From assembly GCA_036172245.1 (NCBI GenBank), contig JAYWIR010000005.1:2542001-2606000 (forward strand): a DNA stretch of 64,000 bases, written 5' to 3'. This document shows positions 1 to 64,000 of the stretch, piece by piece; position 1 is the stretch's first letter, and each line of letters opens with the position of its first letter. Under the pieces are notes generated by a model. That model saw only the letters and a list, made by a program, of their open reading frames with translations. It had not been told where the DNA came from and did no database searches. The stretch is from Raillietiella orientalis (Eukaryota). A program made the position numbers and the translations under genes.

Positions 1-1952
1 GGTCCGGCTTGTGATCCGGCAGGGAGACAGCCTGAGCCCCTTGCTCTTCAGTACCTACTTTGAGTTAGTACTGAGAGCGGACATGGCAACTCTGGCGCAC
101 CTGTCGCACGACTGTGCCGGTACGCCGGCCGTTTCAGCGTACGCGGACGACCTTCTGCTGCTGCGTTATATGTCCACCCCGGCTGCGGCGATCGAGGAAT
201 TCTTTGACCTGCTGCATCGGGGAACCGGACTTACGGTGAACAGAGCAAAGTCGTCCGTGATGCCAGTTGGTGCGGCGTGGGCAAGGCAGCAGGACTGGGT
301 CCGTTTGGGGATCCCCACGGTGAGGTACTTCAAGTACCTTGGTGTGCCGTTGGGGGACTAATCCCCTGCGGAAGCGTGGTCAGGCTGCCTCCAAAAAGTA
401 GAGACGGCGATTAGCCCGTTCCGAGGCTGCATTTTTTTCCTGCCTGAACGGGCCGCGGTTTCGAACACGTTCGCAGCTCCTCTCCTCCGCCCTCTGCTTT
501 CTGTTTGCCCCCCCACAGAGAGAATTAAAAAGCGGACAAAGAACCTCCTCCGTATTGCCCTTTGGAGCAACAAGAGGGCCCGAGTCCGCTTAAAGGACTT
601 GTGCGCTCCGCGTCGGGACGGTGGTCTGGGCCTCCGGACTCTGGAGCGGCTGGAGCTTCAGCTCCAGTTATGATTGTCGGCACTTGTTCCAGAGTTGTGT
701 TGCACCTGTCGTTGCGTCCCTGCTCGTCTCCTTCTTCAGCAAGCCACGGGCAAGACGGAACTGACGTCGTTTCTTGCACTCCGTCTCCGCGTCAACCGAT
801 GGGGACTCCAGCTACGGAGGGTGGCTGCGCTGTACCGGAGAAACCCAGGATTGGTCACCTGTCGCCCTTTGAACGGTGGTGCCTCGTTGCAGGAAACCGT
901 TGGAACGGGGTACAGTTCGGCATGCAACGCTCCCAACAGGAACGAAGGTTCCTGTTTAGGGGTTACAGAAGTTGCACGCTCCGTGAGATCCTGAAGGATC
1001 CAAAGAAGAGAGCGTTGGCAGAAAGAACCGCCCTCGCTGCTGCGCTGCCCTCCCTAATGGAAGATCTGGACAGCGAAGTTGCGGCGAAGTGGGAGGTTAC
1101 AGTACCAATCTCCTGGAAGGAGAAGAAGTTTGGATAGTGGAAGACGGGTCAGCTGACTGGCGCTGCCACCTCGAGTACGCACCCCCATGGACTTCTACGC
1201 TGGGCGCGCTGCTCGACATTCTCATTGAACGTTTAAAGTAACCCCCGGTACTGAAGAACACCTCTACCCTCCCCTTAAAATGGCAGGAGTCGACTCTCCT
1301 GTTGCTGCATTGAAGACTCTCCTGCAACGCCCGCTGGCACTACTGGACATGTTGAGCACTGGACCCCAATTCCGTCCGGTGCTGGGAACGGTATTGCCTC
1401 CTCCACGTGCTTGTGGAGTGTGTTGCCCTTCGGCGCCTTTGGTTTCGCTTTGCCGCGGCCATCGGAATCCCCTGCGGCAATCCCAGGGTCGTTCTGAAAG
1501 CCCTCTTTGCTGCCGACGCCCTGCGGCCAGCGGCCTCGTTAGCAGCCCTGTGCTGCCTCCGCGGGATCGTCGCCGCCTGGAGCAAGGCTACGGGAGGACC
1601 ACACGACCAGTGTGCCAGCCAGCCAGTCTCTTAGTTCCTGAGGAGGGCGTCCAGATGGCCCCACCTGGATCCAAGCATGCAGCAAGAGCTTGCCGGAATC
1701 CTGCAAAGGATGCAACGGCCCCACCAGCAACTGTGATCTCTTTCCGTACCCTCCCAGTTTTTTCTTTTTTTTTTGTTTTGTTTTTTGTTTTTCCCCCTTC
1801 CCTCTGCTGCCGTGGTGAACCGTACCGGTCTGCGAATTGGTGACTTGGCAGGCTCTGTGTTTCTTCGTGCGTGGCTGGAGCAATGGTATGGCCACTGCAT
1901 GTCTTTGTAAATGTTTATTTTATAATAAACGCCCCAGCGAAATTCGGGTTCA
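1..1952 (+). mobile_element. Tx1/L1-like LINE, family F1, 3' half (RT to 3' terminus; 5' part outside window)
   Basis: RT motifs QGDSLSP, YADD and YLGV in ORF 11..361. T-rich 3' UTR, AATAAA at 1924 and terminal hairpin. Colinear with 25020-26982. Confidence 0.9.
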
Positions 1953-2187
1953 AATCGAACGCCTTGCGGAGATCGACCGCGACCGCCAAGGCACCTGGCG
2001 CTTCCTCAGGCTGAATGCTGTGACGCCTAGCCCCAGTAGCCGCAGATGCGGTTACCTGGCTGTCGTGCGCCACGCAACGTTGCAGCTCGAGCCACGTGCG
2101 CGCGAGGAACAGGTTCGCCTCCATGGACCGCCCGGGAACAGCGTTAGACTGCTCCGGACTTACCACGGATTCAGCGATCCTGCCTAG
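1953..2187 (-). pseudogene. RT fragment of an F2 host element, ending at the AVAVDLRKAFD motif
   Basis: Minus-strand translation PGRSMEANLFLARTW...AVAVDLRKAFD; closely similar to 26983-27215. Confidence 0.85.
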
Positions 2188-2295
2188 CTGCCCGCTATCC
2201 TGCAGGGGACTGGCCATCTCGGCGTTTGGCTGTTTTGAAGTGCCCTTCGCAGGAAGGGCAGCTCCGTGGTCAGTGAGGTCGTATTCGCTTAAATG

Positions 2296-4272
2296 CCTCT
2301 GGCGGGACACACAATCATGTTCCGCAGCGTGCAGCGGGTGTAGATGCCGGTGCGCAAGCGGTTGCAGGATTCTCCACTGATGTGTTTTAACTTTGCCCAC
2401 GTTCCAACTGTTTCTTCCAGCCATGCGCTGGAGTTGGCGGGGCTGCAGGCCATCCACCCGTTCTCCCTCGCGAGTGTGGCTACTCGTCCGAGGAGAAGGC
2501 CGCATCTTCTTGTCTTCCTTCCACGACATAATAGAAAAGATGCGAGTCCTTCAGTCCCGGACATACGTCTGGCGAGGAGGCGGGCTGGAACGCACCAAGG
2601 TATGCTCCACAGCTTGGCTGCGATGGCCAAGGTTCGCTAATCGTAGCTGTGTTTCCATTCGCTCCATCATCAGTACACTAAGACCTCCGTCCCGACGAGG
2701 AGCGCACAAATCCTTTTAAGGCACACGAGGCCTCCCGCCGCCCCACAGGGCGATGCGTAGGAGGTTCTTTGTTCTTTTTTTTAGTTCACGGGGTACGGGG
2801 CAAACAAAAAGCAGAGGGCGAAGGAGGGGGGCCGGGAACGCGTTCCACACCGCGGCCCGTTCCGGCAAGTGAAGCTTGCCTTCCAGGAACGGGCCGATCG
2901 CTGACTCCACTTTTTGGAGACGACCTGACCAGGCTTCTGACTGGCAGAAGTCCCCCAACGGAACGCCGAGGTACTTCAAGTACCTCTCCGTGGGGATCCC
3001 CAGGCGGATCTAATCAGGTCGTCCTGTTCACGTTGCACCAACCGCAACCAGCGACGACTTCGTCCTGCTCTCCCGTAGTCCTGTCCCACGGCTCAGCAAG
3101 TAGAAGAAATCTTCGACTGCCGAAGCCGGGGCGGACATAGGGAGCAGGAGCAGTAGATTGTCAACAAACGCCGACACGGCCGGCGTACCTGGGCACGAGC
3201 TTGGCAACGCAGCCAAAGTCATCCTGTATGCTCTCATCACCAACTCGAAGAAGGTGCTGAAGAGCAGGGGACTGAAGCTATCGCCCTGCCGAATCCCGCG
3301 GCGCATCGGCACGCCGTACACTTTCTGTATTCCGAAACAGATGTTCGTTAGCCCGGCGCGCCAGCAGGAGCGCAGGTACGCCGTTAAAGTAGGAGGGAAG
3401 CCCATGCGATACAGAAGCTGCAGGAGGAGCTCCTGGTCCATGAAGTCGAACGCTTTATGGAGATCAACTGTGATTGCTGGGGCACCCTTACCCGCCCGGC
3501 TGTCTTTATTCTGACCAGTGGTCACCCTTAGATTGGGGTTGCCGAGAGATCCTTTGCGTTCTTTTACTTCTTGCGAATGGAACCACGTGCTGGAGAAGAA
3601 CAGTTTAGCCTCCATACTTTGCCTGGAAACAGCGTAAGTCCGGGCGAAGTATGGAGGGCTAATTATGAATTCGGCTACCTGTCCGATCCGCGCAGCCCAC
3701 AGTTTCGCGACCAACTTGACGTCCATGTTCACGACAGTGATCGGACTCTGGTTGGTTAACTTACGGAGGTCTCCTCCTGTAGCAAGGAGCCTCATCCTAG
3801 CTGACCGGAACGAGGCGGGAACATTGCCTTCTTCCCGGATCAGCTGTGTGAATCTGTGTACCAAAGGGGTCAACTCTGCCGCAAAGCTTTGAAAAAACTC
3901 CGCTGGCAGGCCATCCTCCCTTGGTGCCTTCCGCCTCTTGAGCCCTTTAATCGCGGTGAAGATTTCACCGGTCGTGAAAGGCTCGTCGAGACTTTCTTTC
4001 TCTTCCTCCCCTATGGCCGGGTTTCCTTCCGGGAGCAACAGTCGCGAGGCGTCCCGCTCGGGAGGCACCCTGGCGTACAGGGAGGAATAAAATTTTCTCA
4101 GCATGTGTCGAATCGCTGGAGGGGCCGTGTGTTCGCGGTCCTGGTTGTCCAGCAGGGTGGACGGTCCGGACTGCCAAGCTTGACTCTCAGCCCCGACTCG
4201 GTACTCGGCCAGGCGACGGACGTTGGGGGTCCTCGAGTAATGACGGGCGTATAAATACGCCCTTTCGTTACG
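2296..4272 (-). pseudogene. LINE ORF2 fragment (EN-RT linker, RT and post-RT region), frameshifted
   Basis: ORF 3028..4314 contains KAPREDG, DLHKAFD, QGDSFSP and degenerate FVDN; ORF 2716..2979 has KYLGV. Related to 38138-40240. Confidence 0.88.
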
Positions 4273-5270
4273 GAAGGACGTGTTTTTCCGGCGCTCCGTC
4301 GACGAGCTCCGCAAAGCGGTTTTCTCATTTATGAAGTGTGTGTGTTTTCACATCGTTGGTGTCCGATGGCATCGCTGCCAGAGGACACCACGATGGAGGT
4401 AGGAGTTGGGGTGGCTGGTTCGCCCCCACGGCCTACAGAATCAGGGGCATCCGTCCCGGAATCACCCTCGTCGCTTAAGGCAAGGAGTTGGAGCGCCACG
4501 GTGGCCGCGCCTAGCGCGGAAACCATGGCAGAACAAGCAGCATACACGGTACCTTATATACAAGCCATCGCTCGCATATAAGGTAGACAACCTGTTTAAT
4601 GGCAATACAGCACGTGCCTTTACGAAGGCACTGCAGTCAGCTAATGTGTTAGAGCAAGATCTTGATGGCCTCTCCGTCCTCAGCGGGGGTCAACGGGTCG
4701 AGGTGGTATGTAAAGATATCACCTTGTCCCAACGCCTGATCACCGACCCGCTGGTCGTTGATGGACGCAAGATCTTGCCGGTGACGATGGACTGCTCGGT
4801 AGTGGTCCATCTCACCGGGATCACCAGCCGCATGACTCGCTCTGCGGTTGGTGAGGAACTAAGAAAACATGGAGATGTGTACGCGTTGTGGCCCAAGCCC
4901 ACCATTTTTAACAGCTATAATAGCCTTTTTGGTGGCCAGGCCGCAGCGCGTGTCACCGTTAAGGATGGTGGTGCGCTGCCCCACAAGCTGGGGGTCTGCC
5001 AAGAATCGGTGGACCTCTGGTACGTGGGGAAACCCCGCTTTGTGGCTACTGCAATGCAGTAGGGCACTTGCGCAAGCGGTGGACAATCAGCATTCGGCCA
5101 GCTGATTCTTAGGTGGTCCGACTCGATCGACTTAATCATCACAAACGTGTGTGCCCCCAGCGGCAAACAGGGTTACCGCGACCGTACCAGGCTGCTGGAT
5201 ACCCTGAAGCGCTATTGGCTAGCAGACGCGAATGCGCGAAAGGCTCACCTGATAGCGGGAGATTTCAATC
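4273..5270 (+). mobile_element. F4 LINE 5' end: ORF1 N-half joined by deletion (~5080) to an endonuclease fragment
   Basis: GGACGTGTTTTT at 4276. ORF1 similar to 17411-18000. 5085-5270 encodes DLIITNVCAPSG...AHLIAGDFN (APE motifs). Confidence 0.8.
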
Positions 5271-5348
5271 GAGTGCGGACGTGTTTTTCTTCGCTCTCGT
5301 CTCCGGGCTTTCATTCGCTTCATCCTGGTGTCGTGCATTTCGACGACG

Positions 5349-7310
5349 ATGGCGACCCAATCCGAAGCTACTGAAGTTGGAGGAATAGCATCCGGATCTA
5401 CAATCGCGGAACCGACGGCCGCCTCCACTTCGTCTTTCTCGCCAATGGAGAGGAGTTTTGCTGACGTTGCTGCCGCGGCAGCCGTCAAAGGGGTACCACC
5501 CAACGAGGCGGATGTGCAGGCCTACGTAGCCCAGGTCTCCAATCCCGCACTCCGCTACCAGGTCAGTGGATTTCTTTCTGTTCGCGACGGTAATCAGTTC
5601 AACGATGAACTGACCCGTGTTTGCGTGCGGGAGGAAGATCTTTTGGCCATTATGCCCATCAAAACCTTGGGATATTTCAAAGTACGCTGCAAAGACGCGG
5701 CTGTTGTGCAACGCTTGCTGCACACTCCTTTGTCCATCCGTGGTAAGAAGGTCTTTCCGTCTACCATGGATGAGTCGTTCGTGGCGGAGCTTCACGGCAT
5801 CGAACCGGAAACTTCCGACCGCGAATTGCGGACTGTGTTAGCGAAAATCTCCACGGTCCATGCTCTGTGGAAGGTTGTAAGCACCCTTAACGACTTCCCG
5901 TCCATCGTCAGCGGTAGCGCCGCGGTTCGACTAACCATGCTGGACCGCCGGCTTCTACCCTCTAAGCTGCAGGTGAACGACACGGTCATTCACCTGTGGC
6001 ATGCAGACAAGCCTCGAGTATGCGAGAAATGCGGCGAAGAGGGGCATTATCCACAAAAGTGCCCTTCTGGTAAATGCCGCTACTGCAAGCAATCCGGGCA
6101 CAACTTAAAGAATTGCCCGGACCTTGCTAGAAAAAAGGCAGCCGCAAAGCATCAACGCGCGAAATACGTCGCGAAAAAAAGGAACGCGCCAGAGGAAAAA
6201 CAGTGCGCACGGGCTAAGTCTCCTTCCGATGCGAAGCGAAATGCCGGACAACAGCAGGGGTCCTTAACGTTGAAGCCCTTCACGTCACACTTAGCTGCAG
6301 GCGAGCTGCAAAAGAAATGGCGCGGGAGCTCAAAGGACGACTCCAGAGCTCGTGTCAGTGATCGCGGAACCGCGGTTTCAACCCAGGGCCCAACGAAGGC
6401 CAAGGGAAAAGAACCGCTAAATGGCGAACGCGGTCAAGTGGAAAATAAACATTCCACGAACTTGCCCCCTTCAAAGCCGAAGAAGCCCAATGGCCAAAAA
6501 AGGAAGGAGGCCTTCGTTCCGGATTCGAAAACCGGAAAAAATAATCGCGCTCTTCGCGGCAGCACCTCGTCAGCGGAGAACCACTCACCGTCCACACGAT
6601 CAGAGAGCAAGCTCCCGACTGACAGGGATGCGACCCCGACGGAGACGTTAACGCCGGTCGCGCACGCGGCGCCGCTGACGGCCGAAGAGTTAACCTCAGG
6701 GGTTCTCGCGGCGCAACAGGAGATCACCTCCGAATAAGGCGAAAGCGAATGGACGGTGGTGGAAAGAAGCGGTAAGAAAAAAGCTCCAAAAAACGCTCCA
6801 CAACATCCGTCGAAAGCGCTCCTGAAGGCGAGGAACTCTCGAGTGATGAAAAAGACTCGCGCGAAAGTTCCTCGTGCAATATCGCACTCTCATGCTGACA
6901 TTGCGCGAGCTGTAAAAACAGCCTCCGAAAAAAGCGATGCAACATTACCAAAGAGCGCAAAAACGATCGCTGTCCAACAAAAAGACAGCCGTTGCTCTTC
7001 GAGGCACGCGAAGAGCGAGTCACGCGAACGCCATACGGACTCCGCATCGGAGAACGACCCGATTTCCGAACGTCGAGTAACTCGTGCGGAAACGGAGGCG
7101 CGTCGCGTAAAAGCCGGCAGGCGGGAAATTTCCGCCGCGAAGCAGATTGAGTTTCCACCAAAATCCGAGAAGGAGGAACATGGGGTGGGCACCTCAACTG
7201 CATGCAGCACGACGGAGGACAGTGGCGACCGTCCCCTCTAGCCTGTCGTGCTGCTCGCCGTCCGCTCGCCGGATAAAGCGAGCAAAAAGCCGCCGCCTTC
7301 CCAGCAGTAA
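5349..7310 (+). pseudogene. ORF1 (nucleic-acid-binding protein with two CCHC knuckles), disrupted by in-frame stops
   Basis: CEKCGEEGHYPQKC and CRYCKQSGHNLKNC; Lys/Arg-rich low-complexity C-half; stops at 6737 and 7241; frame ends at TAATG 7308-7312. Confidence 0.85.
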
Positions 7311-7960
7311 TGCGGGGAATCGCGTCTTCTCGTCATCTGTCCGTCGCGTGTTGGAACGTGAACGGACTGCAGAACGACGAGAAGAGGCGAATAGTAGCCA
7401 ACGCCCTGCACCCCTTCGACCTCGTGCATCTGCAGGAGATTCACGTAATCTCCGACGAGCAGGCAGCCGAAATCGAGGAGCGCGCAGGCGGAACGCTACA
7501 TTGGCGGTGCGGCGACGCCCACACGTGCAGCGTCGCGTTCCTCGCAAGTGGAAAACTGGCGGAAGCGGTGCGTGGTGTTCGTTTCGACGACGACGAAGGA
7601 CGGGTAGGCCAACTTGTTGTCAAGTGGTCCGAGTCCATCGATCTCGTCGTGACGAACATCTACGCGCCTAGTGGCTATCGCTACCTTGAAGGAAGAGTAG
7701 CTTTCTTTGGTGAGGTGCAAAGCTACTGGCTTAACAACTCCGGCCACCAAGTGGCGCACCTCGTCGCGGGGGACTTCAACGTGCGCCTGCTCTCCGACGA
7801 TTGGAGCCGCCCCAGGAAGCGCTCGCTGCCCATCGAGATGTGCGCGTCAGTGCACGCCGCCAACTTGATGGTCAGCAAACCTGGAATGGAAAGATCGCTC
7901 GATCACTTTTCCTCGATGAAAACCTGCATTGAAGTGTGGGTAGGAGAGGAAGATTGTTGA
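7310..7960 (+). pseudogene. ORF2 APE-like endonuclease domain
   Basis: WNVNGL, LQEIH, NIYAP, VAGDFN, and downstream DH motifs after a frameshift. Confidence 0.9.
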
Positions 7961-8123
7961 CTGGACTTTCTGGGGATCACAGGTCGGAGTTTGAGCTCCT
8001 TCCACCAGGCAAGGGGCCTCCGTTGCTAAACTGGAGGATGCAGACGGATTGGCTTAGCCATCCGGAGGCTGCAGAGTATCTCCGCGAACACCTCCAAGGC
8101 TTCGCCAATCAAGAGCTCGCTTC

Positions 8124-9750
8124 TCACCCGATTGCGCCGGGGAGTTTATTTTTTCGAATAAAACAAGCGTTGGTGGCTGACCTGGTGGTCCATCCATGCA
8201 CTGGTACACAAAAGTAAGCCTGCCGGGTCACCGGTTCGTATTCCGGTACGGTCCACTACGACAGCAGAGGGGGCAAGGACAAAACGAAAACTGTAACAAA
8301 AAAATATATATATATATAAAAACAAGATCTGGTGGGCTCGGGATGGGATCACAGTCTGCTGTGGGGCCGTTGCATCCTTTGCAGGATGCCGGCAAGCTGT
8401 TTTTGGTTTGTTGAATCCAGATGGGTGCATCCTGTCGCCGTCCTCATAAATTCGGCTGCGTACTTGACGGCACCCTTATCGCGTGGTCCTCCCATTGCCT
8501 TGCTCCATGCAGCGACGATCCCGCGAAAGCAGCACAGGGCTGCTAACGAGGCCGAAGGACGGAGGATGTCGTAGACAAAGAGGGATCTAACTGCGTCTCT
8601 GGGGTTGCCACAGGGGATACTGATTGCCGCGGCAAAACGGTTCCAAAGGGGCCAAAGAGCCACACAATCTAAAAGAAGGTGAGAGAGGGACTCCCGTTCT
8701 TTACACCTTGCACAATTAGGGCTCAGCGCTCCCCAGGTCCAATGGTGTCGGCGGGAGTTGCAGGGGAGTCTTCAATGCAGCAACAGTAGAGCCGACTGCT
8801 GCCATTTTAAGGGGAGGGTGGAGGTGTTCATCAGCACCGGGGGCCACTTTAATTGTTCCCGCGGAACATTTAGCAGCTCACCCCAGCGCACAAGTCCAAT
8901 AGGGGTGGTAATCTGGGCCGCAGTTTCGCAAAGAATCCCCGTTTTCCATTTTCCGATTTTTTTCTCCGTCCCGGAGATTTCAGCTTTCACTTCCCATGCC
9001 GCCGCAGTGTTGCCGTCCTAATGTTTTGCGAGGGAACACAGCATTGCAGCAAGGGGAGTTTTCCTTGCCCACGCTCGTTTTTAGGGGTTCTCTAGGACCT
9101 CCCGGAGCGTCAGGCGGTCATTACGGGCGAAGAATTGTCTCTGCCCTTCTTGGGTGCGTTGCTGGTTGCTCCTTGCCCACGTCTGAACCGTTTCCTGCAG
9201 CCATGTAGGTCCGTTAACGGGGAGACAGCAGAGCCATCCCGCGTTCTTCCTCATCATGTCAGTCACTTTCTGCAGCTGCAACCCGCAGTGACCGACTTGG
9301 CGGCGACGACTGAACGCAAGGAAGGATGACAGTCCCACCTTGCCTGTAGCCTGCTCGACAAGGAGACGTGCGAAATCGCACCAACTGCTGGTCCAATACT
9401 TCGCCACTAGGGCGAGTAGTCGAGACTGGAGCTGGAGCTCCAGCCGCTTCAGCGTTAGGAGGCCGAGACGGCCGTCCCGACGCGGAGCGCTCAAGTCCTC
9501 AAGCCGGAATCGGGCCTTCCCATTACCCCACAGGGCAATCCTTAGGAGGTCCTTCGTCCGCTTTTTAGTCTCTGTGGTGGGGGGACAAACAAAAAGCAGG
9601 GAACGGAGGAGGGGGGCCGCGAACGCGTTCCACACCGCGACCCGTTCCGGCAGGGAAAACCTCTGGCCTTGGAACGGGCCGATTGCCGTCTCTACCTTTT
9701 GCAGGCAGCTGGACCACGCATCCGAATGGAGATAATCACCCATCGGTAGC
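8124..9750 (-). mobile_element. 5'-truncated nested LINE (F1-related), antisense in the F3-like ORF2
   Basis: Terminal hairpin and AATAAA at 8124-8150 on the minus strand; post-RT coding remnants. Host reading ...QELA|DRDDLKRSVREFC resumes at ~9755; GCTCGC occurs on both sides. Confidence 0.85.
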
Positions 9751-10510
9751 TCTCGCTCGCGGATCGGGACGATCTCAAAAGATCTGTCCGCGAGTTCTGC
9801 TGCCAATTCCCCTTGCTTCGGTTTTGCAAAAATGCGTGGCCAACAGCAGAGACTTTCTGCAGGCTCGCACGTTTTCGAGACGCGCGGATGTCGGGCGTCT
9901 CGTGGAGTACAAGGCGAGGGCCGAGCGCCAGGTCTAACAGTCCGGAGCAGCATGCTTGTTGGACGAAAAGGGCCAGGAATGTTCGGCCCCAGCCAAAGTA
10001 AGCCGCATTGTGAGACGCTACTACTCCTCGCTGTACGCGGAATCCCCGACGGAGGATATTCTCTCTGAGATACTCCTGTCGCAGGATGCTCCTGTCGTCG
10101 GCGAGGAGGAATGCGAACGTCTCAACGAGTTCTTCACGGCGGATGAATTCTCGTCCGCCATTGCTGGGCTGAAGAGACGAAAGGCTCCAGGCGAGGATGG
10201 GCTCCCTAAAGAGTTTTATCAGTGCTTTGCAGTGGAGCTCATCCCCTTGTTGCTGGGACTCGCGACCCTGATGATGGAATCCGGGAACGTCCCGGATTCC
10301 CTCATTCCTTCCGCTCAGCAAAGGCGAGTCTCCTGCCGAAAGGCGGAGACTCGCGTCAACTCAACAACTGGCATCCGATCACCTTGGTGAACCCGGACGT
10401 CAATTTGTTTTCCAAGCTGTGGGTCGCGCGGCTAGGAAGTATCGCGGAGTCTGTGGTGAGCCCGGAACAAATCTACGCGGTTCCCGGACGATCCATGGAG
10501 GCGAACATCC

Positions 10511-17087: not shown

Positions 17088-17300
17088 ACGAGACCGGGAG
17101 ATCGAACGGACCTCGGCTGGACGGATGCTGTGGCGCTGCGGCACCCAAAATCTAGCGGTGTCGCCTTCCTGCTTCGGCCAGCCATCGAGACCGCAGTAAA
17201 GGGCGTACGGTTCGACGATCACGGTCGTGTCGTCCAGCTGATTCTCAGGTGGTCCGACTCCATCGACCTGATCGTCACGAGCGTGTACGCCTCGAGCGGC
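17088..17300 (+). pseudogene. Endonuclease fragment of an F1-like host
   Basis: GVAFLL...FDDHGRV...IDLIVTSVYASSG; similar to 23350-23550. Confidence 0.8.
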
Positions 17301-46314: not shown

Positions 46315-46341
46315 ATTTTAACGTTCTCTTTCATGGGAGAT

Positions 46342-46348
46342 GGACGTG
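46342..46348 (+). promoter_or_regulatory. DPE-like GGACGTG motif near LINE 5' ends (representative; variants at 4276, 5277, 17080-, 17314, 21439, 38126-, 40385)
   Basis: Conserved across F1, F3 and F4 5' ends that are otherwise dissimilar; fits the DPE consensus RGWYV. Function is inferred. Confidence 0.55.
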
Positions 46349-49300: not shown

Positions 49301-49539
49301 CGCATACGCCAGGTGCGTAAACCTGTCGTCGTCAAGGCGTATTCCTTGGATACGTCTGCCATGGTGGACCAGTGACGAAACCGCTTCCATATAAACTACG
49401 AACAGCATCGGACTAAGGGCGTCTCCCTGACGGATTCCCCTTTTCATCCTGATGTCTGTCGTATGATTTCCGTTGATTCTTATTTTGCAGTACTCCCCTT
49501 CGAGATTCTTCCATACGTAGTCAGCGAAGTATTCTGGGT

Positions 49540-54307: not shown

Positions 54308-54505
54308 TTGTCACCCGGGTGCGCCGGGGCGTTTATTACAAATTATCCGGGAACAGAGTTTCCGGACAAAGGGGAAAACAAGATACGAAGGGGGTGGGAT
54401 CCCCGACACGCAGGTCGGTATGCTGAAAGTCCGGAACGGGAGGGAAGGGACCACAAATACACTACTATAAAAAATAAAAATAAAAATATGGAGGGCAGGG
54501 GACAG
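54308..54505 (-). mobile_element. 198-bp 3'-UTR-only F2 insertion with perfect 15-bp TSD
   Basis: TSD gggcattgctcttct at 54293-54307 and 54506-54520; nearly identical to 19339-19535. Confidence 0.93.
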
Positions 54506-56550
54506 GGGCATTGCTCTTCTCGCCATCGTCAACGCTGAAACGTCTGAACTCGTCGACTGTGCCATCCTCACCTCTGAGTACGAACGGATAGGAGATGCTG
54601 CTCCGTACGCAACCGCAGTTACTCCCTTCGATGGTCCCGGTGGGCACGTCTCCATGATATTCTCTTGTGCCTCTCGGCAACAGTCTTCTCGAGTCCTCCT
54701 TCTTAGGCATCTGTGAGTTTAAAATGCACAAACAATTTCGGAGCACACGCAGGCTCAGCACTACTTCCTCGTCTCTGCAGGAGAAGAACAATCTCCCGAA
54801 TGCCGCAAAGGCAGCGTTAGTGCTGCCATTTAAGGGTGCAGCGAAAGCTGCGCCCCAGGCGACTGAGGAGGAAACCTCGGAGGCGTTCCTTATGAAAGTC
54901 GCGGAACCCTCCGAGGAAACGGACGGCGTGCAAACGTTTATGGAGAAAGGGAGAAAAGTAAAATCTCCCGACAATTCTCCACAACCTTCTCTCAAGAGCC
55001 TCTTCAAGTCAAGGAACAGTCGTACGATGAAGAAGACTCGCGTCCCTCTGCCGTTGCAAAAGGCACTGCCGTTATCGCGCATAGCGCTAAAGCTGCGATC
55101 GCAGGGAGCGATGCCTCGGTGACCACGAAAAAGGCAGCGACCTCGGTTCCATCCGCGAGCACTTGCAAATCGACGCGGCAGGTGAGTCGTGAAGCGCTCG
55201 CGCGTCAATGAGACTCCGAAACGGAGTCTGGTATCACCGCCGAACGTCGGATCACCCGCGCGGAGGCCGTAGCGCGCCGGGCTAAGGCCCTCAGGCGCGC
55301 AGCGCAGGCCGAGAAGAAGCGACAGCTCACCCCGGAGAGCCAAACGACGTTACCCGCAGACGAGCACTCGATTTCGTGCAGTACCATGGAGGACGGTGGC
55401 GACCGTGATCTCCAGCCAGCAGTGCTGCATACCGTCCGCTCGCCGGTGAGAGCGGGCAAAAAACCGCCGACTTCCCAGCATTAATGCGGGGAATCGCTTC
55501 TTCTCTTCGCCTGTCCGTCGCGTGTTGGAACGTGAACGGACTGCAGAACGACGAGAAGAGGCGATCGGTAGCAAACGCCATGCGCCCCTTTGACCTCGCG
55601 CTCCTGCAGAAGATTCACGTAATCTCCGACGAGCAGGCAGCCGAAATCGAGGAGCGTGCCGGCCGAACGCTACTTTCGCTGTGAGGCGACGCACACATGT
55701 GCGGCGTCGCGTTCCTCGCAAGAGGAAAAATGGCGGAAGCGGTGCGTGGTGTTCGTTTCGACGACGACGACGGACGGGTAGGCCAACTTGTTGTCAAGTG
55801 GTCCGAGTCCATTGATCTCGTCGTGACGAACATCTACGCGCCTAGTGGCTATCGCTACCTCGAAGATAGAATTGCGCTCTTCGAGGAAGTGAAATGCCGC
55901 TGGCTCAACAACTCCAGCTTCCAAGTGGCGCACCTCGTCGCAGGGGACTTCAACGTCCACCTGCTCTCTGACGATTGGAACTGCCCGAGGGAGCGAACGT
56001 CGGCCATCGAGATGTGCGCGTCAGTACGCGCTCCCAATTTGATGGTCGGCGTACCAGAGATGGAAACTTCGCCGGATCACATCTTCCTCGATGATAACCT
56101 GCACCACCGTGTGGGAAGGACAGGAAGATTGCCGTCCGGACTTTCTGACCATCACTGGTTTGAGTTCGAGCTCTTTCCGCCAGGCAAGGGGCCTTCGTTG
56201 AAAAACTGGAGGATGCCGGCGGACTGGCTTAGCCACCCGGAGGCGGCGGATCATCTCCGTCAGAACCTCCGGACCTTCGTCATCCGCAAACTCGCGGACT
56301 GGGATCATTTAAAGAGATCAGTCCGCGAGTTCTGCGAACGGTTTCCCTTGCACCGGCTTCCGCGAGGCTTTGGAGAAGGCGTCGCCAATAGCAGGACTTG
56401 CCTGCAGGCGCGCACCTTTTCCAGACGCGCTGATGTCAGCCGGCTTGCGGAATAGAAGGAACCGAGAACCGAGCGCCAGGTCCGGCAGACTGGAGCATCT
56501 TGCTTGCTCGACGAAAAAAGTCTGGAATTCTCAACACCAGCCGGTATGTA

Positions 56551-57580
56551 TCATCCGGATATGCCGGTGCATTCATTATTAAAATTTTTATAATAAAAAT
56601 TTTCTAATAAAGTTTCGTTTTATTAAATAAGTGCAGTCAGAACACGAGGTTCTGCGTATCTGTACACACTTGCCGCCTCCGGTTCGTAGGCCGCAGAGAT
56701 CCTCTCTGGATGCGATGGGAAAGGGAAAACCACAAAGAAAAACAGAAAAATCATATAAAAAGCAAGATGAGGGAAATGTTTTTGGGGAAGGGAGGGCTGA
56801 GAAGGAATCACTGTTCGTCCCGAGTGGTCCTCTGCATTCTCTTTAGGATGCGGACAAGTGCCTGACGTAATGGTGTCAGCCGTGACCATCGAGAAGCTTT
56901 CAGAATGTTGAGAGCCGCCCACCGGATGGCGTTCCGTCTATGTCCTCTGCTGGACGCAGTCGATTTTTTCAGGACCCCACGCATGCAGCAGAGATCTGCA
57001 ACACACGCGGCTGCTGGCAGGGCGTCCTACATCAGAAGACGACGGAAAATGTCCTTCGAGTCGCCCCGAGAATGTTTAAGATCGCCGACAGTCGATCCCA
57101 CATGAATCGTAGGGCTACACACTCGATGATGAGGTGAGCGAAGGTCTCTTGTTCCCCGCACCCTGCATAATTGGCATCCACGGTACCTGATGTCCAATGG
57201 AAGAGGCGTGCTTTGCAAAGGAGTCAACATTGGAACAATAGCAGCGTCGTCTTCTGCCATTCCAGGGACAGGGTGCAACTATCATAGCACGCTGGGGAAC
57301 ACTTCACCTCCTCCGGAGGCATGCTGAGCAGCTCGCCCAAGCGCAAAAGTCATTTAGACGGGACGCTCGGGATCGCAGTGTCCGCTAGCTCTCGAGTTGT
57401 CCACGCCTTCAGCGGTTTTCTCCTGCCTAGGATGAGGCAGGACACTTCCCACAGCGTTCGCTCGTTGCTGTTTCTAATAATCATGAGGAAGGACAGCACG
57501 GGGGCAAGGGAATAAAGTACACAGAAGCTTCCGCGGGCTGCTGGTGATCTGCTGAAGGGGCTGTCAGGCGTTGGGGCCTC
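56551..57580 (-). mobile_element. 5'-truncated F5 LINE, antisense in the F3 EN-RT linker; no TSD seen, some host sequence deleted
   Basis: 3' end tcatccggatatgccggtgcattcatt resembles 32291-32317; C-terminal remnants (KPLKAWTTRELAD) match ORF 32542..34167. Confidence 0.85.
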
Positions 57581-60069
57581 GACGGTTCCGGTTATTAGCA
57601 AAGAGGAACGCGCACGTCTCGACGACTACTTCACGGCGGAGAAAACTTCGTCCGCCATCGCGTAGCAAAAGAGAAGAAAAGCACCAGGAGAGGATGAGCT
57701 GCCCTCGGACTTTAATCAGTGCTTCGCGGCGAAGCTCGTCCCCCTGGTGCTTATCCTCTAGTCGCTGATGAGGGTTTCCAGGGGTGTGCTTAATTCCTTC
57801 CGCTCAGCCAGGGTGCGTCTCCTGCCGAAAGGTGGAGACGCACGCCATCTGAACAGCTGGCGCCCGCTCACCTTGGTGAACTCGGACGTCAAGTTGTTCT
57901 CCAAGATGTGGGTTGCACGGCTAGGGAGAATCGCGCAGTCCTTGGTAAGCGCGGAGCAAACTTACGCTGTTTTCGGGCGGTCCATGGACGTGGACCTCCT
58001 GTTGACCCGCACCTGGATGCAGCTGCATGAAAGCATAGCGCAGCAAAGCCGATCCGTGTCAAAGGCCCCTGCCAAAGGCACACGGTATCGGCAGAAGCGG
58101 CAGGAGGGAACGCCGGGTGCCTTGGCGGTCGCAGTCGACCTCCACAAGGCGTTCGATTGCGTGAACCAAGGACTCCTATTGGAGCTCTTGGAACGCCTGG
58201 GTCTCCCGGCGCAACTCCTGAAGTATTTGCGCGCATGCTGGCGCCACGCGCTAACCTGCATTTCTTTTAGCGGCTGCCACGTGTACGGTATTCCCATACG
58301 CAGGGGCATCAGGTAGGGTGATACTTTAAGCCCGTTGCTCTTCAGCATCTTCTTTGAGTTGGTGCTGAGGGCGTACAGGCTGACTCTGGAGTACCTGCCT
58401 AGCTCTTTCCCGGAAACGCCTGCCGTGGCTGCCTCTGCAGATGACCCACTTCTTCTACTCCCAAAGTCCACCGCAGCGTCCAGTGTCGAAGATTTCTTTG
58501 ACCTGATTCGTCGGGGAGCAGGCGTGAGGGTGAACAGAAAAAAGAGCGTAGTCGTTCCTGTAGGAGCGTCGTAGGAGGGGCAGTCCGACTGGATCCGCCT
58601 AAGAATCCCCACGGCAGGGTACTTCAAGTACCTAGGCGTTCCGTTGGGCGAACTCGGCGCTGCCGAGGCGTGGTCGGACTGCCTTCATAAGGCTGAGCTG
58701 GCCACCAGCCCGTTCATTAACGGTAAGTTTACCTTGCCGAAACGAGCGGCTAGTTGGACGACCTCCGTGGCCCCCCTCCTCCGACCCCTGGTTTTTGCCT
58801 TGGACGCGCTCAATGAGCGGGCAAGACGTGTGCTAAGGAACGCTCTCTGGGTTCCGGCGCGATCCAGGATCCGTCTGAAAGACCTCACTGCTCCACGTCG
58901 GGATGCTGGGCTTGGCATTCTTACGATGGAGAGAATCGGACTGCAAGTGCAGTTCCGGATGCTCGCACTGTGTGCCGAGCTATGGACTTCTACCCTGTGT
59001 GCGCCTGCGCGCATCCTTCTAAGGAGGTGTACAGGCAGTGAAGGACTTTTTTCGTTGGTGCCTGGCTTGCGCCACAGGAAATAGGGATTTGGCTATCCCT
59101 TGAGGAAAATCGCCACCCTATTGGAAGCCAATACGATGATTTCCTGCCTCCCAATGAACTTCAATGCTTGGCAGCAGGAATCTTTTGATTCTTGGGATGC
59201 ATTCCTAGATATGAGCCGCAAAGATCTTCGGCCCATGCGTCAATTTTAACCTTGACCACTCCAAGATGTGATGCAAGACGTGGTGAAGTTTGCCTTTCTG
59301 ACTGCCACGCCCCTCGCCGAAGCACCCTCTTCCCTCGAGGCTAGAGAAGACAGTAGCCAACCGGCGATGTGAGAGTTCTCTTGCATCATCGCAGGAAGAA
59401 CGAAACTCCTCGGCGAATGGGACACGAGCGAGCTGGCGAATGCCGCCACTCCTCGTGCTACATCAAAGTGACAACTTCGGTGGGGAGGAGCTCTTCGGGT
59501 TGCCCCCGAGGAACTGATAGTCCCTCCCGCTGTTTGGACGGTTCGGTGTTTCCCCTTGCATGGAAGCTAGACGTTCTGCTTTTTTTGCACTGGGGTTTCC
59601 GCTACAACGAGCGGCGCCACGGAGTTTCCGGTGGGATGGCTTCTCCATACTGTGCCCGGTGCGGGGCTACGGAGTCGTTCCCGCACCTTGTTATGGACTG
59701 CGGCACCCTCCAGGAACTCTGGCGAAGGTTAGCAGCAGCTCTCCTGCCACTGGGGGACGCAGCCCGAGAAGTGCTGCGACGTTTCTTCTAACCGCGAGGA
59801 CTTTCGAGGGCTGCGATGATTTCCACAGTTTGTTGCATCCACGCCATGGTCACGGTCCGAGACGTGCTGGAGAACACGGACCAGCAATGTTGTGTCACCA
59901 GAAGGCAGCCGACTTAATCAGGGTGGCAGCTGCGTGGCGACAATTGAGGGAAGACGCAACGGAGGAGCACACCGGCATCCATTGCCGGATTACCCTCGGT
60001 TTAGAACGATGGACCCGGTGATCCATGTCCATTCCCTTTTAACTCCATTTTTGTTGTCGCGCCCCTCTT

Positions 60070-61011
60070 TTTTTTTTTTGGTTCACTAAGTGCGCCTCAA
60101 GAGCCGGTCGCGTACCTTGCGGCACACATAGCTCTTTTAAACACTGTTTTGTTTCCACGCCTCTCCGCTGCAACAACCCCGCAGGTGCGCGTGTAATTCT
60201 TCAGTGTAATTCTTCAGGATAATGGACACCCCGGGATGGGGTCCTCCCTATGAATCCAGGAAAGGCTCGGAGTCCGTTCCTCTCACGCTTGGGGTGGGGA
60301 GGGATCCTCCCGGAAGGGGGGGATCGCAGCTCCTACCCTGGTTGTCTCCGAAGGGGAACCGCGAAGGGAATCTCCTTCCTCGTTCTCTCCGGAGGGACAC
60401 CCCCCGTTATGGGGGATGGTCCTATCCATTTCAACTTCTCCGGAGGGAACCCGGAGAAGGAATTTCTTCTCCGGAGGGAACCCGCAAGGGAATCGCTCCT
60501 GTTCACTCCTCTGAAGAGAACCCCGAAGGGACGCTTCCGAAATTCAGAAGGAGCGCTGCAGCTTCCCACAGGGGGATCGCTCTCGCTTGCTTCCTTGTGC
60601 ACTCTGTGAAGAGGCGACGACTCGGAGGGTCCCCCTGCAACCGGGGCGGATCCGCCCCTGGAGACAACTGGAGAGGTGCCCGTGAGGGCTCCTGCTCCAT
60701 CTTGAAACCGGAGGGACCCCTTCGGTGGGAGGGGTCCGCTCTCCGTTGTACGACCGGAGGGGGAACTCTCTGCTCCTTTATTCCTGGGAAGACCCGAAGG
60801 TCAATTTCCCATTGTTCTGTCCTTCATCAAGGGTCTCCGGCTTAATCCACCGCCGGTGCCACGCCCGAATGATTAGGCCAACCAGCGCCACTGCAGGAGA
60901 AACTCGGCACCCGACGACGCAGTGGCTTCAGTGTTTCTGCCGAAATATTCGAACCCGCGACGCATGGTGGCACACGCGCAAGCCTTAACCACAAGGCCTC
61001 CGACGCGGGCA
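60070..61011 (-). mobile_element. tRNA-derived SINE-like retroposon (~940 bp) with poly(A) tail and 11-bp TSD
   Basis: TSD gcgcccctctt at 60059-60069 and 61012-61022; T run 60068-60079; minus-strand head with A-box-like aggccttgtggttaagg and B-box ggttcgaat. Absent from the 3' UTR of F3 copy 1 (~46040). Confidence 0.85.
60940..61011 (-). promoter_or_regulatory. tRNA-like head with internal Pol III promoter (A and B boxes)
   Basis: D-arm-like gcctt-gtggtt-aaggc (60982-60997) and T-loop GGTTCGAAT (60947-60955) at tRNA-like spacing; acceptor and T stems degenerate. Confidence 0.7.
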
Positions 61012-61296
61012 GCGCCCCTCTTCCCATTCGCTCCGTAGTGCTTTTGGTGCTTCTGCTCTCTGTCTTTTCCGGGGACTGCGGAGCGTCACCAAAGATCCCT
61101 GACCCTTTCCTCCCATTAAGACTGTTCTTTTTTATTTGTAGCCCCCTCTTCCCCCAATCGCTCGAGACCTTCCGTTTTCCTGGCCTGAGTGCCACTGGTG
61201 TATCTTCGTTGATAGTTTTCTATAGTCGTCGGCTGGAAACAACTGTTTCCAGCTGGTTTATGTGAATAAAAGTCCCGGCGTGACCGGGTAAGAAAA

Positions 61297-64000
61297 ATTT
61301 TAACGATCGCTTGCAACCAGATGGGCGGGATCATGAACGCGCCCTGGTCAAGGAGAGGTGCGCGTGGGTGCACGCATGTAACTTGCTGGCCACTGAACCG
61401 GGAATGGGGGACCCCATCGATCACGAGTTCCTTGACCAGCACTTGTGCCCTTGCGTGAGCAGGCGCGGCAAGTTACTGTCCGAGCTGTCCGAGCATTGCT
61501 CGATCGTGCTCGAGATTCATCTGCGCGACAGGGGCCCTTCCTCGTCAGCGTGTCGTCTCCCAGAGGACTGCCTGAAGCTCCCGGACGCTGCGGAACATCG
61601 CACGTTTATACGGAGCTTAAGGGTGCGGACACATTATGATTAGGATTGCTTCAAGAGGTCAGTCCAGAAGTTCTGCGACCAGTTGTCTATGTACCGCCTA
61701 CCTACAGGATTTGAGGACGAGGTTTGTAACGACAGGTGCTACCTCCAGGAGCGGCGTTAATTCAGGATCCATGATATCCGCAGGCTAGAAGAATACAGAG
61801 CGGAAGCCGAGAGGCAAGCCTGGCAGTCAGAATCGGCTACCTTGCTAGACTATCAGGACCGGGAGCACTGGGCTCTCACTCAGATTCGCGGACTTCTGCG
61901 TGGTTTTTATTGTTCCTTCTACGCGAAAACGCCTCCCGAGCGGGATGTCTCACGACTCTTGCTTCAGGAAGGCGCTAAAGCGATCGGGGAGGAGGAGAAA
62001 AAGTCCCTCGACGAGCCTTTCACGATGGGCGAGATCATCTCGGCCATCGGAAAGCTCAAGAGGCGCAAGGCTCCAGGGGAGGACGGCCTGCCCGCGGAGT
62101 TTTATCAAACTTTCGCGGCCGAGCTATCCCCCCTGGTACATCAACTCACCTTGCTGATACGCGAGACAGGTGACGTTCCCGCCTCGTTTCGTTCGGCAAA
62201 GGTGCGGCTTCTCCCTAAGGGAGGAGATCTGAGGAGCATGAACAACTGGCGTCCCATCACAATAGTGAATGCGGGGGTCAATTTGATACCAAAGATGTAG
62301 TCAGAGCGTCTGAGAAGGGTTGCAAACCCCTTCATCAGCCCGGAACAGACATATGCTGTTCCCGGGCGAAGCATGGAGGCAAACCTGTTCCACGCTTCCA
62401 CCTGGCTAGAGCTCCAACAAGAAAGGGGCTTGATGCGCAGCCGGAATTCCTGTGCGTCCGTAGGCAATGGGTCGGATGGTTGGGTGGGGGAGGGAGCCCT
62501 TGCGGTCGCAGTCGACTTGCACAAAGCATTCCACTGCGTCGACCAGAAACTCCTGTTGGAGCTTCTGGAATGCTTGGGCTTCTTGGCCTCATTGTTAGCC
62601 TATCTGCGCTCCAGCTGGCGCGACGCGTTGATCATTCTTTCTTTCAGCGGGCAGACCGTGCACGGCGTGGCGGAGCGGCGTGGGATACGGCAAGGAGACA
62701 GCCTGAGCCCCTTGCTCTTCAGTACCTACTTTGAGTTGCTACTGAGAGCGTACAGGGGAACTCTGGCGCACCTGCCGCACGACTGTCCCGGTACGCCCGC
62801 GGTTTCAGCGTACTCGAATGACCTTCTGCTGCTGCTCCCTATGTCCACCCCGGCTGCGGCGGTCGAGGAGTTCTTCGACCTGCTGCATCGGGGAACCGGA
62901 CTTACGGTGAACAGGGCGAAGTCGTCCGTGATGTAAGTTGGTGCGGCGTGGGCAGGGCAGTAGGACTGGGCGTGCTTGGAGATCCCCACGGTGAGGTACT
63001 TCAAGTACTTCGATGTTCCGTTAAGGTACTATCCTTCTACGGAAGGGTGGTCCCGCTGCCTCCAGAAACTAGTGATGGCGATCGGCCCGTTCCAATTCGG
63101 CAGGTTCTTTCTGCAGATGTGGGCCGCGGTTTGGAACACATTTGCTGCTCCTCTCCTCCGTACCCTGCTTTTTGTTTGCTTCTCCACAGAGAGGATCAAA
63201 AGGCGGACGAAGGACCTCCTCCGTACCGCCATTTGGGACAACGGGAGGACCCGAGTCCGCTTGAAGGACTTGTTCTCTCCGCGTCGGGAGGGCGGTCTCG
63301 ACCTACTGACGCTGGAGCGGCTGGAGCTTCAGCTCCGGTTCCGGATGTTGGCCGTTGTGCCGGAGTTGTGGGGCAGCTTCTGGTGCGTCCTCGCACGTCT
63401 CCTCGTCAAGGAAGCCGCCGTCAAGGAAGATGGGGCTCACGTCCTTTCTTGCACTCCATCGCAGCCGCATCAACCAATATAGACTCCAGCTGCGGAGGGT
63501 GGCTGACTGGAGTAGAAAAAATTTAGGATGGATCTCCTGTCGCCCCGCGAACGGTAGTGTCCGGTTGCAGAAAACCGTTCGACATGGGCACAGAGCGGCA
63601 TGCAACGTGTCGAACAGGAACGACGGTTCCTGTTCGGACGCTACAGAAGTTGCACGCTTTGAGAGATCCTGGAGGATCCGAATAAGGGAGAGTGGTCAGA
63701 AAGAACCCTCCTCTCTGCTGCGCTGGTCTTCCTCATAAAAGATGTGGACAGCGATTTGCGGCGAAGTCAGTGGTTAAAGTCGAAATTCCCGGAATGGAGA
63801 GGAAGATAGGAGAGTAGAACATCTAGCAGACGCTGCGACTCCGAGTACGCCTCCCCATGGACTTCTGCGCTGAAGCGCGCTGCTCGATGTTCCAGTTGAA
63901 CTTCTGAAGTGTCTCCCAGTGCTAATGAATACCTTCACTCTCCTCTAAAAATGGCAGGAGTCGGCTCTTCTGTTGCAGCACTGGTGACTCCCGTGCAACT
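61297..64000 (+). mobile_element. F1-like LINE ORF2 (EN end, RT, post-RT region), runs off the window
   Basis: KAPGEDG, NWRPIT, DLHKAF, QGDSLSP and degenerate YSND; colinear with 23660-26360. Confidence 0.9.

Follow-up and report, generated by a model that had tools for sequence, protein, structure and literature searches.

The 64-kb stretch of Raillietiella orientalis DNA considered here (GenBank assembly GCA_036172245.1, contig JAYWIR010000005.1, positions 2,542,001 to 2,606,000; hereafter the window, from which all of the elements, junctions and counts below derive) is a nested array of decayed long interspersed nuclear elements (LINEs) of the L1 superfamily, comprising at least six lineages, four of which have insertion junctions that recur at homologous sites in the coding sequence of other LINEs. 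GC content across the window is 50-63%, and reading from stop to stop gives 112 open reading frames (ORFs) of at least 150 amino acids (aa). Among 14 of the longest, Pfam profiles identify RVT_1 above cut-off in five (35-65 bits) and below it in one, Exo_endo_phos in one (63 bits), zf-CCHC above cut-off in one and marginally below in two, and zf-RVT in two, at 26.2 and 25.7 bits, just short of the 27.5-bit cut-off; four of the 14 match no Pfam family, and the remainder match these four families only. In the window as a whole zf-CCHC scores 28.1 bits at 11022-11390 and 27.0 bits at 40380-41462. Full-length copies have two ORFs and no long terminal repeats (LTRs), with an endonuclease (EN) of the apurinic/apyrimidinic endonuclease (APE) type upstream (N-terminal) of the reverse transcriptase (RT). 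The CCHC zinc knuckle in ORF1 and the zinc-binding region C-terminal to the RT in ORF2 are as in L1/Tx1-type elements; the N-terminal, APE-type endonuclease, and the presence of two ORFs rather than one, are unlike R2-type elements. The nested, LINE-only organisation, built through insertion into existing copies, is Zepp-like.

Self-comparison of the window by blastn gives 102 non-self alignments, with identities of 64-96%. Two full-length copies, F1a (21427-26982) and F3a (entered as 40369-46314, refined to 40374-46314), served as references for a three-frame tblastn map of the LINEs, which covers 51,350 of the 64,000 bases; insertion sites are given below as nucleotide (nt) coordinates of F3a, and the features are collected in Table 1. 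Hit-free stretches of at least 150 bp total 9,385 bp and hold 43 ORFs, in which Pfam searches found zf-CCHC, Exo_endo_phos and one weak DDT match, and no integrase or transposase. The initial annotation of this DNA had described it as LINEs with neither LTR elements nor DNA transposons, a description which stands as regards encoded integrases and transposases, but which has to make room for a 944-bp non-LINE insert at 60068-61011. All 15 of the junction coordinates that it gave were read and are real element boundaries. No Rfam family or tRNA was found in the window; the only tandem repeats are two short ones, both within F1 5' regions; and neither CpG depletion nor a bias like that of repeat-induced point mutation is seen (CpG observed/expected 0.96, transition/transversion 1.1-1.4). 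All copies in the window are already decayed.

An alignment of the RT core (670 nt, 14 copies) separates the clades F1 (F1a, F1b, H3), Hc/E3, F3 (F3a, F3c), F2 (Ha, F2b), F5 (F5a, F5c, F5d) and F6 (F6a, F6b), the last being only ~40% identical in nucleotides to all others. F2 and F5, previously treated as families, are loose groups with internal identities of ~70-80%, and several members sit elsewhere. The typical 3' end, which is present 13 times, consists of AATAAA, a 5-bp GC stem (CCCGG..CCGGG) with a 5-6 nt loop, GT and a short A-rich tail. All 13 ends keep the stem-loop; as the stem does not vary, it shows no covariation and is supported by conservation only, and the fold energies are no better than those of shuffled sequences (z -0.3 to -1.7). 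Zepp, by contrast, ends in poly(A) rather than in a stem-loop and short A-rich tail. In most lineages AATAAA is able to pair with an upstream TTTATT. A second, upstream stem-loop is seen in the 3' untranslated regions (UTRs) of F2/F3 copies, at 19375-19395 (-), 36860-36880, 46245-46265, 54345-54365 (-) and 61225-61245, with changes on both sides that preserve pairing (CCGGGAAC..GTTCCCGG, CTGGAAAC..GTTTCCAG and CTGGGAAC..GTTCCCAG). The F6 3' end differs in being without the AATAAA-CCCGG motif and in having a weaker predicted terminal hairpin; the GC content of F6 copies (10511-15755, 47664-54791), ~50-53%, is also lower than the 57-63% of the other lineages.

True full-length starts are marked by the motif GCGGACGTGTTTTTC, in places as a variant, which F1, F3, F3d, L, D and J carry 5-20 nt from their 5' ends. 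It occurs at 5275-5288, 17312-17325, 17069-17082 (-) and 38115-38128 (-), with variants at 21440, 40385 and 46342; its carriers are otherwise diverged lineages, and it is a candidate internal promoter or initiator element. Target-site duplications (TSDs) are of 13 bp for F1a, 16 bp, present in three copies, for F3, 15 bp for F5a, 13 bp for F5d and 15 bp for F2c, and 5' truncation is common, the truncated copies spanning 0.2 to 1.9 kb. The combination of TSDs, variable 5' truncation and a constant 3' end is, as a sequence pattern, the signature of target-primed reverse transcription.

The F1 site lies at F3a nt ~3755-3772, where F1 copies are antisense (junctions 1953, 21427/26983 and 38138). 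Full-length F1a (5.55 kb) is flanked by a 13-bp duplication, AATCGAACGCCTT (21412-21424 and 26983-26995), which is the antisense of K-A-F-D in the host Ha, the halves of which on either side of F1a are contiguous when placed on F3a. F1c (36927-38137) abuts H-K-A-V-D of another host, Hc, at most 3 nt from the position of the F1a 5' junction. The two inserts are 92.2% identical (1103/1196) vs 66.6% for their host flanks (437/656, in a 661-bp stretch; 65.3% over 1.7 kb), and flank identity shows no rise toward the junction. Shared descent and gene conversion are therefore both excluded for this pair, identity being flat beside the junction. For the junction at 1953 the F1b and F1a inserts are 88.3% and the flanks Hb and Ha 89.7% identical, so that F1b/Hb either is a segmental duplicate of F1a/Ha or arose at about the same time, through insertion into a sister host. 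The claim of F1 insertion at HKAFD thus holds as independent events at 21427/26983 and 38138; the junction at 1953 may be a copy of that at 26983. Codons matching KA[F/V]D occur 11 times in the window, four of them bordering F1 junctions (at three loci) and seven uninterrupted.

The F3 site lies at nt ~2514-2519, with insertion in sense (junctions 5270, 40373, 46315 and 61297). H1 (40242-40373) and H3 (61297-64000), both of the F1 clade, join as a single host, H, between the parts of which lie F3a and a second element, F3bc; F3b stops at F3a nt 1342 and F3c picks up at nt 1354, the gap being filled by F6b. The 16-bp word ATTTTAACG[A/T]TC[G/T]CTT is found three times, before F3a, between F3a and F3bc, and after F3bc, which is the pattern expected of a re-used TSD: the duplicated target was used again, giving the tandem pair. 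Identity between F3a and F3bc is a mosaic of 73-83% and 100% blocks, including 1,350 bp without a difference, so the pair is not a simple recent duplication; it is read as two different source elements, probably patched later by gene conversion. The 100% blocks are at 42618-42917 and 44467-45816 in F3a, with approximate partners at ~55685-55985 and ~58486-59835 in F3bc, amid the 73-83% blocks.

A further F3-related element, F3d, begins at GDFN of an unrelated host, D/H4 (target GGAGATTTCAAT). Only its 5' junction is seen, within ~8 nt of that of F3a, and its identity to F3a is 66% in ORF1, 85% in the EN and 75% in the N-terminal part of the RT. The recurrent GDFN site is thus real, while the four F3 coordinates correspond to two host sites and three elements (40373, 46315 and 61297 being one host site). 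GDFN is matched six times in the 64 kb; four matches are uninterrupted, among them F3's own (GGG GAC TTC AAC).

F5a and F5b share a site at nt 3110-3113, antisense, in the linker between EN and RT (junctions 32292 and 56550). F5a (1.9 kb) lies in F2b, an F2-clade host, with a 15-bp TSD, and F5b (1.0 kb) in F3bc, with ~85 bp of the target lost at its 5' junction. Divergence is the same between the inserts (72.2% identity) as between the hosts (71.8%), and on its own cannot decide on independence. The F3c pieces of the F5b host are, however, 91-96% identical to F3a by blastn, and the F5 site is intact in F3a; the empty site in this sister copy means that the F5b insertion postdates the F3 lineage and was not inherited from the F2b locus. 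The recurrence of F5 at the linker is accordingly upheld by different hosts, different truncations and the empty sister site.

The F6 site (nt ~1333-1342, antisense, in the distal region of ORF1; junctions 15756 and 47663) has similar properties. F6a and F6b each adjoin the host directly after the Q codon of T-(R/Q)-Q, in different hosts, and the sister copy F3a has this site empty, which upholds the recurrence proposed for F6. The two elements are 62.6% identical over their last 800 nt and their hosts 65.6%; their 5' UTRs fail to align, and the 5' end of F6a at 10511 is placed from length alone.

As the initial annotation had suggested, the junctions were compared with a null of random nesting, here within the window, using 16 mapped events, with F1b left out and coincidence defined as the same orientation and positions within 15 nt. 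Six coincident pairs are present vs 0.32 expected, a number reached in 3 of 200,000 simulations; with the tandem F3 pair merged there are four, reached in 90 of 200,000, and taking a 3-kb target and disregarding orientation gives 5,216 of 200,000. The coincidences exceed chance, which is an unlikely explanation of the shared sites, and every coincident pair shares the same 3'-end type. Each of the four recurrent junctions includes at least two insertions unable to share descent. The core of the earlier proposal, i.e. family-specific insertion at homologous coding sites of sibling LINEs that was not inherited by duplication, is supported at all four sites; taken as a list of events, its coordinates mark real sites, but independent events are fewer than the coordinates listed.

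Site-specific insertion of LINEs into LINEs is the best explanation of the recurrent junctions, and we assign it a probability of roughly 0.78. At least four lineages (F1, F3, F5a/b and F6) would integrate via ordinary target-primed reverse transcription at lineage-specific sites of ~13-16 bp, within the protein-coding sequence of other LINE lineages. F1 would cut within the RT motif (H/R)KAFD and enter antisense, F3 at the EN motif GDFN and enter in sense, F5a/b in the EN-RT linker and enter antisense, and F6 after T-(R/Q)-Q in the ORF1-distal region and enter antisense. The sequence specificity would likely reside in the APE endonuclease of each lineage, the situation established for R1 and Tx1 elements. 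The multicopy sibling LINEs may then constitute a harmless, self-renewing landing pad, and such insertion may be the way in which a LINE-only array grows.

A bolder proposal is that the lineages form a guild of mutual parasites, the endonucleases of which have evolved to cut codons that rivals must conserve, with competitor copies as the landing pad and a self-growing array, possibly a centromere-like LINE island, as the outcome; this is possible but doubtful. That the destruction of competitors' catalytic motifs is a function of the insertions is conjecture. It might be that lineages escape one another via synonymous changes, as is hinted at by the KAFD codons of F1 itself, which differ from its target at two synonymous positions, and by the GDFN codons of F3, which has GAC TTC where its targets have GAT TTT or GAT TTC.

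Several observations weigh against site-specific insertion or limit its reach. Only 2-3 events are available per lineage, all from a single 64-kb window, and it may be that LINEs are not the only or the main target. The two target copies of each lineage differ at 3-4 of 13-15 positions, and those of F6 share only ~6 of the first 9 bases (counted by eye), so that recognition must be tolerant or rest on more than the bases adjacent to the nick. F3a (44126) and F3c (58146) each carry a perfect 13-nt F1 target with nothing inserted in it; F1e, a 76-77% relative of F1, sits off KAFD, at nt ~2861; and the equal identity of insert and flank in the F1a/F1b pair may reflect one event that was later copied. 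The 100% blocks of the F3 pair suggest either patchy gene conversion or collapse in assembly or polishing. The 5' junctions of F6a (10511), F5c (27486-27640) and Ha (27501) adjoin sequence that does not continue the host of the 3' flank (27486-27624 is an orphan ORF1 fragment), so the array has also been rearranged; these junctions suggest large deletions, or later recombination, on top of insertion.

Nor is specificity general: the three F2 ends, F5c, F5d, F1e and D are at unrelated sites. The counter-examples named at the outset (F2 ends at 19339, 36926 and 54308; F5 ends at 29862 and 49540) do sit at sites with no relation to one another. One F2 end falls at nt ~2238, another at ~1150, within ORF1 of an F1 copy, and the third within an F6 copy, in its 5' region; no shared target was seen in the three F2 flanks. 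F5c lies at nt ~650, in sense, and F5d at nt ~3811 of F6b, in sense, with a 13-bp TSD.

Among the alternatives, it may be asked whether the endonucleases are sequence-specific but the motifs generic, such that each element lands wherever its 13-16 bp word occurs and has LINE hosts only because the window holds nothing else. The targets do tolerate mismatches, and all of the data come from within this window; words of this length would, however, be rare by chance even with 3-4 mismatches, and we regard this explanation as unlikely. Because the target words encode conserved motifs, every LINE copy has them (KAFD 11 times and GDFN six times in 64 kb), so that LINE copies would dominate the target pool in any case.

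An improbable alternative is that integration is directed to a chromosomal region, e.g. centromeric or heterochromatic, as proposed for Zepp-type clusters, with the recurrent sites being hot spots that arise from weak nick preference or microhomology to the RNA tail, rather than evolved targets. The window is a LINE-only array resembling the nested Zepp clusters of green algae, as far as excerpts of their descriptions go (PMC8226300, PMC3446292), several of its lineages are without a recurrent site, and the junctions permit a 1-2 nt overlap of tail and target. Such an overlap cannot, however, yield the precision observed in a 6-kb host: the offset between insertions is 0-3 nt in the F1, F5 and F6 pairs and no more than ~8 nt at the F3d 5' junction, with host identities of 66-72%, and each hot spot is used by a single lineage in a single orientation.

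That each shared junction goes back to one insertion, multiplied within the array through segmental duplication, unequal crossing-over or gene conversion, is highly improbable. The similar insert and flank identities of F1a+Ha and F1b+Hb (88.3 vs 89.7%) are as such copying would give, and the 1,350 bp without a difference in the 100% blocks of F3a/F3bc imply that copying at the DNA level does occur here. As a general explanation, however, copying is already refuted by the F1a/F1c pair, where divergence of the flanks exceeds that of the inserts by 26 points and the junction shows no converted tract, and by the empty F5 and F6 sites in the sister copy of the host of F5b and F6b. F5a and F5b differ, moreover, in length and in type of 5' junction, the hosts of F3d and F3a are unrelated sequences, and hosts that are 66-72% identical are, as is generally known, poor substrates for homologous exchange. 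Congruence of insert and flank, as expected were duplication alone responsible, thus fails at all four sites (F1a/F1c divergence, empty F3a sites and unrelated F3 hosts). Misassembly of a highly repetitive region as the source of part of the nesting can be all but set aside: exact 100% blocks between neighbouring copies and abrupt, non-contiguous 5' junctions are of the kind an artefact might leave, but the junctions carry matching TSDs and coherent host continuations, and the site-sharing copies, 8-37% diverged, are too different for an assembler to confuse.

Further features of the array bear on its history. Near-identical 13-mers, CGCCTCGAGCGGC (17288-17300) and CGCCCCAAGCGGC (40242-40254), bracket L...Hc at a distance of 23 kb: K ends in CGCCTCGAGCGGC directly before the 5' end of L, H1 begins with CGCCCCAAGCGGC directly after the 3' end of Hc, and K and H1 are both ~87% identical to F1a. 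The two 13-mers would be either the TSD of one element (L-M...Hc) or a fifth recurrent site; if the former, five or more later insertions have inflated a single element to 23 kb. D shares its 5' type with L, its flank being different. F3d (5270-10510) and F5c (27640-29865) might be halves of one element, as their map ends nearly abut (nt 3611 vs ~3615-3640), but their outer flanks are not contiguous in any host. The 944-bp insert in the 3' UTR of F3bc, absent from F3a, has a 9-bp duplication, GCGCCCCTC, and an A12 end, and may be a poly(A)-tailed short interspersed nuclear element (SINE) mobilised by a different LINE; neither Rfam nor ARAGORN at default settings found a tRNA head in it, a tRNA-like match appearing at the 80% threshold only.

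Table 1. Elements, host fragments and target copies mapped in the window (positions are those of the window; nt, coordinate on F3a unless another element is named).
Feature	Position	Strand	Description	Basis or identity
F1b	1..1952	+	3' part of F1, cut at window start; terminal stem-loop decayed	88.3% to F1a 25034-26979
Hb	1953..2190	-	F2-type host fragment ending at KAFD; F1 target AATCGAACGCCTT at 1953-1965	89.7% to Ha 26983-27215
E3	2191..4271	-	RT-bearing fragment, Hc/E3 clade; KAFD site at 3456 unoccupied	tblastn map, RT-core tree
D + H4	4272..5269	+	L-type 5' end and ORF1 (4272-5044), EN fragment to GDFN (5096-5269); F3d host	D ~74% to L at 17314-18063; H4 = nt 2346-2519
F3d	5270..10510	+	F3-related, full-length 5' end at GDFN, interrupted by F1e, abrupt end at nt ~3611	
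F1e	8122..9755	-	5'-truncated F1 relative, at nt ~2861	76-77% to F1a/b over last 450 nt
F6a	10511..15755	+	Deeply divergent; 3' end abuts J directly after Q codon of T-R-Q	Pfam EN, RT core
J	15756..17095	-	Element with F3-like ORF1, full-length 5' end near 17095; F6a host	5' motif 17069-17082
K	17100..17300	+	F1-clade EN fragment, probably upstream part of host H; ends CGCCTCGAGCGGC	86.7% to F1a
L-M	17301..19338	+	5' end, ORF1, EN start; possibly 5' part of element with 3' part Hc	Motif 17312-17325
Ha (F2a) 3' part	19339..21426	-	F1a host, KAFD to own 3' stem-loop; left TSD 21412-21424	
F1a	21427..26982	+	Full-length, antisense in Ha KAFD; ORF1 444 aa, ORF2 broken	TSD AATCGAACGCCTT
Ha (F2a) 5' part	26983..27501	-	RT upstream of KAFD; right TSD 26983-26995	
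F5c	27640..29865	+	5'-truncated, start approximate; 3' end abuts ORF1 of F2b	nt ~650, sense
F2b	29866..36926	+	F2-clade, nt ~650 to end, interrupted by F5a; 3' end abuts F1c	
F5a	32292..34204	-	5'-truncated, antisense in F2b linker	TSD GCGGCCGAAGTT[T/C]GC at 32277-32291, 34205-34219
F1c	36927..38137	-	5' 1.2 kb of F1; 5' end abuts H-KAVD of Hc, antisense	92.2% to F1a
Hc	38138..40241	+	F1c host, KAFD to own 3' stem-loop; 3' end abuts H1	
H1	40242..40373	+	EN fragment of host H; CGCCCCAAGCGGC at 40242-40254, F3 target ATTTTAACGTTCGCTT at 40358-40373	87.4% to F1a
F3a	40374..46314	+	Full-length 5.9 kb, sense at GDFN of H; F1, F5, F6 sites unoccupied	
F3 target copy 2	46315..46330	+	ATTTTAACGTTCTCTT, between tandem F3 elements	
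F3bc	46331..61296	+	Pieces 46331-47663, 54792-56549, 57587-61296; interrupted by F6b, F5b, 944-bp insert	
F6b	47664..54791	-	Antisense directly after T-Q-Q of F3bc; carries F5d and F2c	
F5d	49540..51336	-	5'-truncated F5-clade, in F6b RT, sense	13-bp TSD ACCCAGAATACTT
F2c	54308..54505	-	198-bp 3' fragment of F2	93% to F2a; 15-bp TSD AGAAGAGCAATGCCC
F5b	56550..57586	-	5'-truncated, same linker position as F5a, in F3bc	~85 bp of target deleted
944-bp insert	60068..61011	-	In F3bc 3' UTR; possible tRNA-headed SINE	A12 tail, 9-bp TSD GCGCCCCTC
H3	61297..64000	+	Host H from GDFN on; F3 target copy 3 ATTTTAACGATCGCTT at 61297-61312	81% to F1a 23661-26357

Relatives of the encoded proteins are distant. 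Word-based protein searches gave none above 33% identity, and a full HMMER search returned 3,786 proteins at E <=0.001, only one of which reached E <=1e-30. This is a metagenome protein, 55% identical and, by tblastn, 63-70% identical to F1, Hc/E3 and F5 copies; a further HMMER match is a 132-aa fragment with 70% identity, and KAFD is uninterrupted in both. Names were obtained for seven of the 13 best HMMER representatives, i.e. three from Closterium sp., two from land plants, one from a pseudoscorpion and a metagenome protein labelled exonuclease III. Among named relatives the nearest are L1-type proteins of land plants and Closterium (23-31%), with others in ticks, a pseudoscorpion and lizards (23-37% overall), which weakly suggests an L1-type element of the green lineage rather than the animal Tx1 clade. 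A metagenome scan with the 3' motif AATAAAYGYCCCGGN{5,6}CCGGGT gave 15 loci, where ~15 are expected by chance, none similar to the window by blastn or tblastn; no relative was found in viral contigs, and the Protein Atlas returned generic EN/RT clusters only.

The window provides base-level targets, TSDs and independent repeats for four lineages. Should a genome-wide census bear out the pattern, it would offer a concrete mechanism for the origin and growth of LINE-only, possibly centromeric, islands, a natural case of hyperparasitism with possible arms races among retrotransposons, and a series of related APE endonucleases that differ in their 13-16 bp specificities and would lend themselves to studying how specificity is encoded.

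The safe targets described for site-specific LINEs, in the parts of the literature available, comprise ribosomal DNA (rDNA), small RNA genes, microsatellites, DNA transposons and LTR elements (PMC4494074, PMC1919474). Tx1-clade families, according to the excerpts available, enter DNA transposons and LTR elements at set positions, the choice of target being attributed to the endonuclease: Tx1L inserts into the piggyBac element Tx1D, the crocodilian Tx1-Mar into Mariner-N4_AMi, Tx1-9_AMi into Harbinger, and Tx1-8_Crp and Tx1-4_AMi into LTR retrotransposons (PMC4494074). As in that clade, APE-type LINEs in the window recur at one position of another multicopy transposable element, and related families have different targets; unlike there, where the targets described are DNA transposons, LTR elements, small RNA genes and microsatellites, the targets here are coding motifs of sibling LINEs, and several lineages target one another within a single array. 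Sequence-specific insertion into a repeated target, the Tx1-type behaviour, is seen in four lineages, which is a likeness and not proof of membership; the label Tx1-like used in the initial annotation is a putative one. The APE endonuclease of R1Bm, as described in the portion consulted, makes cuts on both strands at one specific sequence of a target that is conserved and multicopy (PMC1919474); that target is a host gene (28S rDNA) and R1Bm is of a different clade, whereas the target here is another mobile element.

Self-nesting provides the other comparison. Zepp/ZeppL L1 clusters, in Coccomyxa and Chlamydomonas, arise through nested insertion into existing copies and are richer in GC than the genome, judging from partial accounts (PMC8226300, PMC3446292). 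The window shares with them LINE-only nested clustering, 5'-truncated copies and tandem arrangements, and its nearest named RT relatives are also of the green lineage. The Zepp/ZeppL clusters, however, are essentially of one self-targeting family, and the descriptions, in the parts seen, give no defined target sequence or codon-level site (PMC8226300, PMC3446292), whereas at least six lineages are present here, four of them with distinct, defined targets. Cnl1 of Cryptococcus likewise nests within itself, being, as far as the excerpts of its description extend, a single subtelomeric self-targeting family (PMC9942834), unlike the cross-lineage insertion in the window. No precedent for several LINE lineages targeting one another's coding motifs was found in a literature search based partly on excerpts, most subscription journals and Repbase Reports being outside it. 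On the sources as available, site-specific LINEs and self-nesting LINE clusters are both already known, and what appears new is that several LINE lineages each have a defined target of their own within the coding motifs of the others.

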